In this document: piece after piece, positions 15,551-18,500 of the stretch
Numbering within the stretch: the first letter of the stretch is position 1
Layout: every line of letters begins with the position of its first letter
Source: Escherichia coli
GTDB lineage: Bacteria; Pseudomonadota; Gammaproteobacteria; Enterobacterales; Enterobacteriaceae
DNA length: 64,000 bases
Assembly (NCBI RefSeq): GCF_003018115.1
Contig: NZ_CP027457.1
Direction: 5' to 3' (one strand)
Made by a program: the position numbers

Positions 15551-18500
15551 TAATGAGGGACGTATTTGTATTAGTCGCGACTTGATCTGACACATAGCCT
15601 TGAAAGGTTGAGAGTTACCGGTTTTGATATGAGTGTCGAATCCTTATCCAAAACAAGAGGTAACTCTCATGCTTCATACTGCCAATCCCGTCATCAAACA
15701 CAAAGCCGGTTTGCTCAATCTGGCTGAAGAACTCAGCAACGTATCAAAAGCTTGTAAAATCATGGGCGTTTCGCGTGATACGTTTTATCGTTACCGCGAA
15801 CTGGTCGCTGAAGGCGGTGTGGATGCGCAGATTAATCGTAGTCGCCGCGCTCCTAACCTTAAGAACCGTACCGATGAGGCAACTGAACAGGCTGTTGTTG
15901 ATTACGCCGTCGCTTTCCCGACACATGGTCAGCACCGGGCCAGCAACGAGCTGCGTAAACAGGAGGTTTTTATCTCCGACAGTGGTGTCCGTTCTGTCTG
16001 GTTACTCCATAACCTTGAGAATCTCAAAAGACGATACTGAACAAATTTTATCAGGTGACGTTCCGTAAAAAGTTGTATGGAGTTCTCGATGCAGTCGGCG
16101 CGACTATCAGTACCCCCGCTGAACCCTGGACTATCGGGCCGCCGTACTGGGGCATGTCACCCTGGCGTGCCGCTGGTTTTCCGCTAATGGTTTATTTCCT
16201 CTTTCTTTCCCAGCAAGAATTTATTTTAATCCGGAAGGATTATTTATTTTCAGATAGGGACTCACATTAAACACGTAACATTTTAATTAATGCATGGCTG
16301 AATATGTATTACACAATGTCAGATATCGTAAAAGACCAGTGCAATTCTATGTAAACTCTCTGACTGTTCATTTTATTTGTTGTTTCAGGGTCGGAACTCA
16401 CCCTCAATAAACAACTGAATACGAGTAGATATTCATCGTCTGAGCTATATGGCTTTACACAATAGCCGACATGTCTTTTCTCAGTCAGGAATTTTACTTT
16501 TCCTCACTACGAAGTTGACGACTTCGATATGGGATAGACTCTTAATTCAAGCAATTACTCTGCACAAGCATCAGGCAATCCAGCTCCAATATTTGTTATA
16601 AAATAATGCGTAACATTAATTTCACCAACAAAAAAAAGGTTTACGCTATCCCCTTGCCCTGGTATTTTACCATATTTACACCACACTTTTTTTGTATCTG
16701 GATCATTCTCTGATACGATTTTCGCCACTTGTTCCCTGGCCCTCACTGTCAATGTTTTCTTAAACCTACCCCCATCATCATTTGTTAGGGAAAAATAAGA
16801 AAAAAAATAATCATCTTCTACATTTGTGTATATTGATATATCCACCGCTACGTGCGGAAAAAAATCTGGGAGCCATGTAAAAACTCCATCATTTTCTGGT
16901 ATTGCCATATAGTTTATGTAATGTTTACTTACAAGAGATTCATCTTTGTATAAATAAAGATAAGTAATTACGCATAAAACAACAATGATTATAATAGCAA
17001 AAATAAATATTATCATCTTTGATAGATTACTTGAGATAGCCAGCATCTTGTAAAGCCTTTATCGTTTTTTTATGCTCTGGATTAATATAATCACTACATC
17101 TATCTGAGCAATCTGTTGTTGATGGACATGTCAACCCATGGTCATTTACAGCCAAGTCTTTTTTATTATCTTCAATCATTTCAGAATGGGATAGCTTTAC
17201 TTTTCTGCCGTACATACCGAACAGATTTAACCCGTAATCTCTAATCTCTTTTTCATAACCCAGCCCTTTCGCCGATCGGCTAACACCAGCGTCATTTAAT
17301 TTAGACACTCGACAAAATGCCATACAATGGAAAAATTGATCAGTCCCACCTAAATTTAATCTCTTCATATCTTCATAAGTATCAGATAATATATCCCATG
17401 CTCTTTGATGGTTTAGTTGATCTTTTCTTCTTATTAGCGCTACATCTGCGGGACTTAACCCTAATGGATCAATACCATTCACCGGATTCAGCGGATACGC
17501 ATACAGACTCCATCCCCCCTCCAGCCCTATCGGGTCCTGAGTGATATACCGCCCCTGCAACGGATCGTAGTACCGGTTCCGGTTGTAGTACAGCCCCGAC
17601 TCCGTATCATACTGCTGCCCCGGCAGCCGGTACGGCTGGTGCAGGTGATGCGGGTTCTCCTCATTAAGCTGGTTGCCCCATTCATCATATTCCGCGCTCC
17701 ACGCCGTATTGCCGTCTTCACTGATAAGCGCCAGCGGCAGGCCCCGGTGGTCACAGTGATAAAGATGTATTTTTCGCTCAGGCAAATAAACCGGCTCTAT
17801 CTGTGCCGCCAGCCGCTCCACCGTCAGCCCGCACTGCGCAAGCCACTGGCGGCTTTCACTGCTCACGCAGTTTGCCCGGATTTCCCCCTCCAGCCTGTCC
17901 AGCAGCCCCACCAGTTCAGCCGGGAACACCACACCGTGACCGTCCTCACTCCCTTCCTGCTGTAACTTCTCCACCAGGCTTCGCCGCTGCGCTTTATCCA
18001 GTTCGCCGTTCTCTGTCTCGATGCGGATGAGCGGCGCGAAGCTCCCCGGCTGGTATACCGTCTGGATACGCGTGGTATCGGTCTGTACCGTCGTCAGCCA
18101 GTCGCCGTCCCATCCGTACCACGTCACCTCCGGTTTACGCGACAGCGACATCCATCCCGTCAGGTCACTCTCGCGACGCCACACCCGTTTCCCCGTCCGG
18201 CGGCCCAGCGGGTCGTAGAGGTAGCGGCTCTCGACCAGTGGCTCCTCATGCTGTATCCGCGTGTAAAACACCAGCCGGTGCTGGCTGTCGTAGTGGTAGT
18301 GGTGGGTCCGCTCGTCGTCCGTCCGTATCACACCCGTCGGGATGCGGTCCGTCTTCTCCGTCAGCCTGCCGTATTCATCGTGGCGGTAGACATAGTGCGC
18401 ATCCTCCGCGATGCGGTTATCCGGCCACACTGTGAGTGTACTGTCCGGGTGCAGCTCCGGGTCCGGCAGCCGGTTGCCCGCCGGGTCCGTGGCATACGGG

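Follow-up and report, generated by a model that had tools for sequence, protein, structure and literature searches.

ylbI of Escherichia coli as a probable 5′ stub of a second, vgrG-linked rhs lineage joined to an IS481-family remnant

C-terminal displacement in rhs loci leaves orphan rhs-CT/immunity modules, which consist of a 3′ core end, a toxin tip and an immunity gene (Jackson et al., 2009, PMC2935791). The same work places one rhs locus between ybbA and ybbB (mnmH), at position 3, and infers that it is a duplicate of position 6 (yncG/yncH). Here, we analyzed a 64,000-nucleotide stretch of E. coli contig NZ_CP027457.1 (RefSeq assembly GCF_003018115.1; the whole stretch is called the window below), which contains the ybbA-ybbP/rhs/mnmH (selU)-allS region with rhs on the minus strand. 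An earlier note on this DNA had pointed to a fragment of about 100 bp that resembles the rhs 5′ end and lies downstream of the rhs immunity gene. This fragment was already known, as it is the annotated pseudogene ylbI of reference E. coli. Its sequence indicates that it belongs to a different, vgrG-linked rhs allele lineage than its neighbor, and it is quite likely that ylbI is the dead 5′ stub of a second rhs gene of that lineage, truncated by a deletion into an IS481-family remnant and carried passively.

Identity and lineage of the rhs-like fragment

To define the fragment, positions 16188..16093 (minus) were aligned without gaps with positions 21229..21134 (minus) of the intact rhs gene, and 75 of 96 nucleotides (78%) and 28 of 32 residues were the same. 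When the 96-nt rhs 5′ probe was slid over both strands of the window, it scored 96 on itself, 75 on the fragment and 48 at the next-best site, with a background mean of 24.4 (sd 4.3). With a z of ~12 (11.8), far above random expectation, the match is real and not due to chance, and the 75-80% identity given in the earlier note was accurate. Codon 1 of the fragment is ATT (16188..16186) where rhs has ATG at 21229, again as the note had said. Its coordinates, 16085-16192, were within a few bases of the true limits, 16093-16188, and the loss of similarity that it described is real but was placed too early, after about 25 codons: the rhs similarity spans 32 codons and ends abruptly at 16093/16092, with background identity beyond. 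The two copies are 5,041 bp apart, both on the minus strand, and thus share the orientation and bracket rhs and its immunity gene as noted previously. The fragment aligns to rhs nt 1-96 alone, and no further rhs similarity was found in window 16000-16554. Its reading frame meets a stop after 45 codons, inside sequence derived from an insertion sequence (IS), and therefore the fragment is not part of a longer gene.

The same stretch is present in K-12. Window 16560-15560 is ~99.6% identical to K-12 MG1655 529130-530139, which holds ylbI (b4632) and ylbG, and the 96 nt show 0 differences from the pseudogene ylbI (NC_000913.3 529497..529592), which lies between ybbD and ylbG in the K-12 gene order ybbP-rhsD-ybbD-ylbI-ylbG-mnmH. 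In strain F9792, PGAP (RefSeq) annotates the same 96 bases as a partial coding sequence, 'missing C-terminus'. The EcoGene/EcoCyc entry for ylbI reportedly describes it as an Rhs-family N-terminal fragment. The literature found in a search for 'ylbI' consisted only of table entries in studies using SELEX (systematic evolution of ligands by exponential enrichment) and chromatin immunoprecipitation (ChIP), and ylbI, looked for as an N-terminal relic at the locus, is not discussed by Jackson et al. (2009; PMC2935791). The fragment retains conserved sequence of the N-terminal PAAR-like region of clade I Rhs proteins, as seen in the 28 of 32 residues shared with the adjacent Rhs. Compared with an intact Rhs, it has no ATG and no frame into DUF6531, the YD/RHS repeats or the core, and the stop stands at codon 46.

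The earlier note had taken ylbI for a copy of the start of the neighboring rhs gene that had since diverged, and this part of it was not borne out. The 21 nucleotide differences between ylbI and the adjacent rhs fall 2, 2 and 17 on codon positions 1, 2 and 3 (binomial P = 1e-5), and the proportion of synonymous differences (pS) is 0.66 vs 0.054 for nonsynonymous ones (pN). Because the divergence is biased to synonymous sites, ylbI once coded for protein, and the 17 of 21 changes at third positions argue against neutral decay of a copy of the neighbor. The substitution pattern is instead that of two genes that diverged while both were under purifying selection. Furthermore, ylbI is no closer to its neighbor than to other subfamilies: over the 96 nt, it shares 75 identities with the adjacent rhs, 75 with K-12 rhsD, 71-74 with rhsA, rhsB and rhsC, and 72-73 with a third E. 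coli rhs subfamily (L013, L016). K-12 rhsE is 5′-truncated and was left out of this comparison.

A closer relative was found by searching one genome each from 100,044 species with a degenerate-codon pattern for ylbI-specific residues (QYGG.I with GVLI). This search returned one intact gene, a vgrG-linked rhs of Pseudocitrobacter faecalis that is identical to ylbI at 86 of 96 positions; the sole other match was an E. coli-contaminated contig of a metagenome-assembled genome (MAG) carrying ylbI itself. With the P. faecalis 5′ end as a query against E. coli genomes, an intact allele was found at the yncG-yncH-vgrG-rhs locus of the O157:H16 strain Santai and many other strains. The Santai allele (WP_040234712.1) is identical to ylbI at 88 of 96 positions, Leu27 is common to ylbI and both relatives, and both relatives lie directly downstream of vgrG. 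ylbI is separated from the Santai allele by five changes that are synonymous and three that replace a residue (M1I, T13P and G29V), consistent with constraint having been relaxed for a short time after inactivation. In addition, the leader of ylbI (~43 nt) resembles the vgrG-rhs intergenic leader, with the motif AAGGAATTGAATC degraded to GAGGAAATAAACC, and over the final 20 nt it agrees with vgrG-linked rhs leaders at 13-14 positions vs 9 for the leader of the adjacent rhs. The 5′ end of the main, intact rhs is itself 92-93/96 identical to other position-6 alleles. A protein search with the 32-residue peptide padded to 56 residues returned only short Rhs N-terminal fragments and, as 0 of the 10 retrieved had P13, L27 or V29, did not bear on the lineage. 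Taken together, these comparisons place ylbI, on present sequence evidence, in a vgrG-linked allele lineage different from that of its neighbor.

The IS481 junction and the surrounding locus

The features of the locus, in window coordinates, are as follows.

24071..21657, minus: ybbP
17027..21229, minus: intact rhs gene, 1,400 residues (Pfam DUF6531, RHS_repeat x13, RHS)
21134..21229, minus: 5′-terminal 96 nt of the intact rhs, which make up the second arm of the 'direct repeat'
16555..17046, minus: presumed immunity gene, YbbD family, 163 residues (NCBIfam NF011298, 379 bits)
16237..16419, minus: AT-rich spacer 3′ of the immunity gene, homologous to the post-immunity spacer of the yncH (RhsE) locus
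16189..16231, minus: leader remnant of ylbI with a Shine-Dalgarno-like AGAGGA, drawn from alignments (upper limit ~16231 approximate)
16093..16188, minus: ylbI, a 32-codon rhs 5′ remnant with ATT for ATG
16092..16093: deletion junction at which rhs codon 32/33 meets the interior of an oppositely oriented IS481-family transposase gene over a 2-nt TG microhomology
15566..16093, plus: degraded IS481-family element (ylbG), drawn from NF033577, Pfam HTH_29 and blastn
14459..15553, plus: mnmH

The gene that follows ylbI on the opposite strand, ylbG (annotated start near 15669, end 16040, plus strand), encodes the N-terminal portion of an IS481-family transposase, matching positions 2-112 of 284 of NF033577 (transpos_IS481; E = 5.6e-25). 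The score of 88 bits is under the 224-bit full-length cutoff because ylbG is truncated; the terminal end and the helix-turn-helix region are present. To map this remnant, we used a full-length IS481-family element on an Escherichia albertii plasmid (L003) as the blastn reference. Window 15566-16033 is 96% identical to it over 468 nt, from the IS left end to about transposase codon 122, and window 16025-16093 is 81% identical over 69 nt to the transposase interior, up to L003 position 1600, which is ~144 nt short of the stop codon of that gene. Between the two pieces, ~463 bp are missing through an internal deletion. The element thus does not have the DDE catalytic domain and both ends of a complete IS: besides the internal deletion, its homology stops inside the transposase gene and the right end is absent. 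The ends of the internal deletion overlap (CAAAAGACG/CATAAAACA), and the difference of 81% vs 96% between the pieces may reflect different IS copies or a mosaic element.

The rhs homology (ending …CCGACTG) and the homology to the IS481 interior stop on the same 2 bases, TG at 16093/16092, so that the break is an illegitimate deletion junction. Simple insertion of an IS into rhs was ruled out as the cause of the truncation, since it is not an IS end that meets rhs at the junction but sequence from within the transposase gene. Homologous exchange of the tip was likewise ruled out as the origin of the stub by the position of the junction inside the transposase gene. On the other side, the IS left end (15566) is 13 nt from the mnmH stop codon and, when compared with genomes whose ybbP-mnmH site is empty, forms the right boundary of the whole island; the left boundary is at 21647, ~9 nt past the ybbP stop.

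Upstream of ylbI, blast matches of the leader reach 16200-16208. The spacer (16419-16237) is 86% identical over 185 nt to the RhsE (position 6) locus of strain HCM-24C-3 (L012 7001-7185). In HCM-24C-3, a small gene precedes this spacer and an ISAs1/H-rpt element stands after it in place of ylbI, and in the window the ylbI leader begins a few bases further on. This homology agrees with the published derivation of position 3 from position 6 (PMC2935791).

The remaining genes of the locus can be described briefly. The intact rhs is 96.3% identical to K-12 rhsD up to the tip, and the tip is the one orphaned as ylbH in K-12. In other strains, the immunity gene is named 'YbbD family protein' by PGAP, and its K-12 counterpart is the pseudogene ybbD. 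A mechanical list of open reading frames (ORFs) gave an in-frame ATG 27 nt 5′ of the rhs start (21229-21256) and hence a 1,409-residue ORF; the start at 21229 is the one used by RefSeq and all homologues. The toxin tip (window 17027-17450, Rhs residues ~1260-1400) has no Pfam family, with a sub-threshold SAA match only (E = 0.006), and the 163-residue YbbD-family partner has no Pfam domain, so that no toxin activity is assigned by domain. A sub-threshold Rfam match to psRNA2 (RF02349; 32 bits vs a gathering threshold of 65; E = 1.4e-5) covers window 15495-15666 on the minus strand and spans the 3′ end of mnmH and the left end of the IS481 element.

Distribution, conservation and the ybbP-mnmH site

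To determine how widespread ylbI is, the locus was compared across 5,426 complete E. coli genomes. The fragment was present at ≥98% identity in 2,800 genomes, and the 1-kb spacer-ylbI-IS481 structure was present at ≥98.7% identity in 2,724. This recurrence of one kilobase points to a junction that arose once and is old. The distant blastn search with the stub lists only the best place per record, and carriers of ylbI thus mask their other rhs genes in it. Several records of the plasmid collection carry chromosomal mnmH-ylbG-ylbI at >99% (e.g. Klebsiella oxytoca NZ_CP069916.1, 19 kb; NZ_OL790696.1, 4.8 Mb); at least one of these 'plasmid' records is chromosome-sized, and such records are probably mislabeled or chimeric. 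In addition, a 4-kb contig of an 'uncultured Alistipes sp.' MAG (L018, CASFSC010000074.1) is 98.7% identical to window 17735-15000, including ylbI, ylbG and mnmH; this contig is E. coli DNA, and the Alistipes bin is therefore contaminated.

In 1,857 genomes, ybbP and mnmH are within ~1.4 kb of each other. In the examples examined (L009 861-1016; L010; L011), the site held an empty 42-bp intergenic region, a dinQ-like type I toxin gene or an unrelated insert of ~600 bp. In SCU-115 (L019 12513-17191), it holds a gene for a 667-residue Hcp(TssD)-fused effector followed by four DUF2931 family genes. Strain HH97 (NZ_CP116409.1; L008 1075-1345) carries a separate rhs 5′ stub of 221 nt, 97.7% identical to an rhsD-type gene and annotated as 'DUF6531 domain-containing protein, missing C-terminus'. 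The junction of this stub with the intergenic sequence of the empty site falls on a short motif that both have in similar form, GCCGTTCATTCT in rhs and GCCGTTTATTTCT in the empty-site sequence, and is followed by 16 nt of poly-C, which may be an assembly artefact. The HH97 stub is independent evidence that loss of a whole gene with a 5′ stub left behind occurs at this site.

We also looked for signs that the stub or the repeat is active. A synthetic query modeled on the sequence expected if the rhs 5′ end had recombined with ylbI, with the rhs-immunity unit lost, was found in 0 of the 5,426 genomes (≥80% coverage in one place). Repeat-mediated deletion of the rhs-immunity unit was therefore rejected, as no genome had both halves adjacent and no recombination between the repeats was detected in the 5,426. 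Efficient RecA-dependent exchange needs roughly 23-27 nt of identity at minimum, and the longest identical run between the two arms is 17 nt. The stub is conserved no better than the dead IS and the spacer around it. A promoter scan found no consensus sigma-70 promoter in 15950-16650, and there was no Rfam match over the stub. The Shine-Dalgarno-like AGAGGA is 8 nt 5′ of the ATT. On the plus strand, opposite ylbI and past the end of ylbG, the near-palindromic GGCACGCCAGGGTGACATGCC of the stub gives rise at 16151-16171 to a terminator-like hairpin with a short T run, probably by chance. On balance, ylbI in all probability does nothing at present and is carried passively with the rhsD island.

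Origin of ylbI and comparison with described rhs relics

The series of events that we favor, and hold to be probable, would begin with a second rhs gene of the vgrG-linked lineage that was once full length between ybbP and mnmH. An illegitimate deletion would then have removed the rhs body, the toxin tip and the immunity gene, with its ends at rhs codon 33 and in the transposase interior of an IS481-family element next to mnmH. The resulting stub, of a ~43-nt leader and 32 codons, would afterwards have lost its start codon (ATG to ATT) and gained two more amino-acid replacements. Of the lineage itself, the vgrG-linked rhs genes of Pseudocitrobacter and of the yncG-yncH (RhsE) locus in some E. 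coli strains would be the survivors, and about half of the searched E. coli genomes carry the stub along with the rhsD island. Because the IS end forms the chromosomal boundary, a full-length second rhs was most likely once at this site and was deleted in place.

Several points weigh against this series of events. A ylbI-type rhs that is still full length between ybbP and mnmH was found in no genome. Only 96 nt can be compared, and the lineage call (88 vs 75 identities) thus rests on few sites; the leader similarity (13-14/20) is short. With 81% vs 96% identity for the second and first IS481 pieces, the junction partner could be another IS copy. As to the absence of activity, a genomic SELEX table has an RpoD-holoenzyme site between ybbD and ylbI (PMC3946193), and an FNR ChIP peak is labeled ylbI (PMC1802558). 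Transcription of the region is thus conceivable. AT-rich horizontally acquired DNA often yields binding signals of this kind, and we gave them little weight.

Among other explanations, the stub may have been imported already truncated, as the ragged edge of a segment from a yncH-type (RhsE-like) donor, with no full-length second rhs ever at the site. Such an import would suit the inferred duplication of position 6 into position 3 (Jackson et al., 2009, PMC2935791), the 86% identical spacer upstream of ylbI, the likeness of the main rhs 5′ end to some position-6 alleles (92-93/96) and of ylbI to another (88/96), and the occurrence of tandem rhs genes in E. coli (L016). It is nevertheless rather improbable: on its 3′ side the stub is joined to the interior of an IS481 element, and the outer end of this element forms the island boundary at mnmH; a complete IS followed by a local deletion is the simplest account of this, and the donor arrangement of spacer, leader and intact rhs was not found in the searches. 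Local duplication of the adjacent rhs 5′ end followed by neutral decay, as read in the earlier note, would explain the shared orientation and locus, the 78% identity and the lost start codon. We regard it as highly improbable, because neutral decay should spread changes evenly over codon positions instead of 2, 2 and 17 (P = 1e-5), 28 of 32 residues are kept despite a pS of 0.66, ylbI is as distant from the adjacent gene as from the other rhs subfamilies tested and matches a different allele at 88 of 96 positions, and the leader differs from that of the adjacent gene (9/20). Moreover, the flanking non-coding DNA differs by <1% between strains, which makes a decay of 22% in place implausible. 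The least credible alternative is that the stub is kept for a function, as a homology anchor for swap or deletion of the rhs-immunity unit, as a small ORF or RNA, or as an antisense terminator for mnmH-ylbG transcripts. Its ≥98% identity in 2,800 genomes, the AGAGGA 8 nt before the ATT, the hairpin at 16151-16171 and the RpoD and FNR signals nearby would be in keeping with this. Against it, the IS remnant and the spacer are equally conserved, so there is no constraint specific to the stub; repeat-mediated deletions number 0 in 5,426, with a longest identical run of 17 nt; and the region has no consensus promoter in 15950-16650, no Rfam match, an ATT in place of a start and a stop after 45 codons.

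As a finding, ylbI is real but ordinary and of low interest, and what is added here lies in the details of its allele origin, its IS481 microhomology junction and the hotspot in which it stands. The ybbP-mnmH site is a hotspot of alternative islands of type VI secretion system effectors, holding the rhs island, the Hcp-fused effector with DUF2931 genes, a dinQ-like gene or nothing. The stubs suggest that illegitimate deletion removes whole genes from rhs loci, in addition to the swapping of toxin tips, and they caution against reading such repeats as local duplications. It is very doubtful, but conceivable, that 5′ stubs such as ylbI and that of HH97 are recurrent by-products, or kept anchors, of a whole-gene 'N-terminal' replacement, which might proceed from incoming vgrG-rhs modules or empty alleles through one homologous and one illegitimate crossover. 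If true, this route would complement the well-known C-terminal displacement.

Compared with its counterparts, ylbI of the window has the same 96 nt, the same ATT and the same neighbors as K-12 ylbI, with ybbD upstream and ylbG and selU/mnmH downstream. It resembles the position-6 allele of Santai in 88 of 96 nt, in Leu27 and in a similar leader, which in Santai directly follows vgrG; the Santai allele differs in being intact and full length with an ATG, whereas ylbI has no rhs sequence past codon 32. The HH97 stub is, like ylbI, an rhs 5′ fragment left at ybbP-mnmH after loss of the remainder of the gene; it differs in being rhsD-type, 221 nt long and joined to empty-site sequence, whereas ylbI is joined to IS481.

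The difference between the window and the K-12 locus is itself a textbook case of C-terminal displacement. The rhs of the window carries the ylbH-type tip followed by an intact ybbD. K-12 has an extra rhsD-CT/ybbC cassette (L002 7999-8982 vs window 17493-17704), and the tip and immunity gene of the window are there the orphan ylbH and the pseudogene ybbD. ylbI is beyond ylbH/ybbD in both strains and unchanged, and it is therefore a separate and older scar. The earlier note had suggested a footprint of past recombination or cassette displacement; the IS481 deletion junction supports a past rearrangement, and displacement of a cassette does not apply, because ylbI has no 3′ core end, no toxin tip and no cognate immunity gene, the next features being the IS481 remnant ylbG on the opposite strand and then mnmH. 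Like the orphan rhs-CT/immunity module ylbH/ybbD of K-12, ylbI is a relic in an rhs locus, is oriented like the main gene and records past rhs turnover. Orphan modules, however, are made by homologous insertion at the core end, whereas ylbI is a 5′ end that would derive from an illegitimate deletion into an IS remnant.

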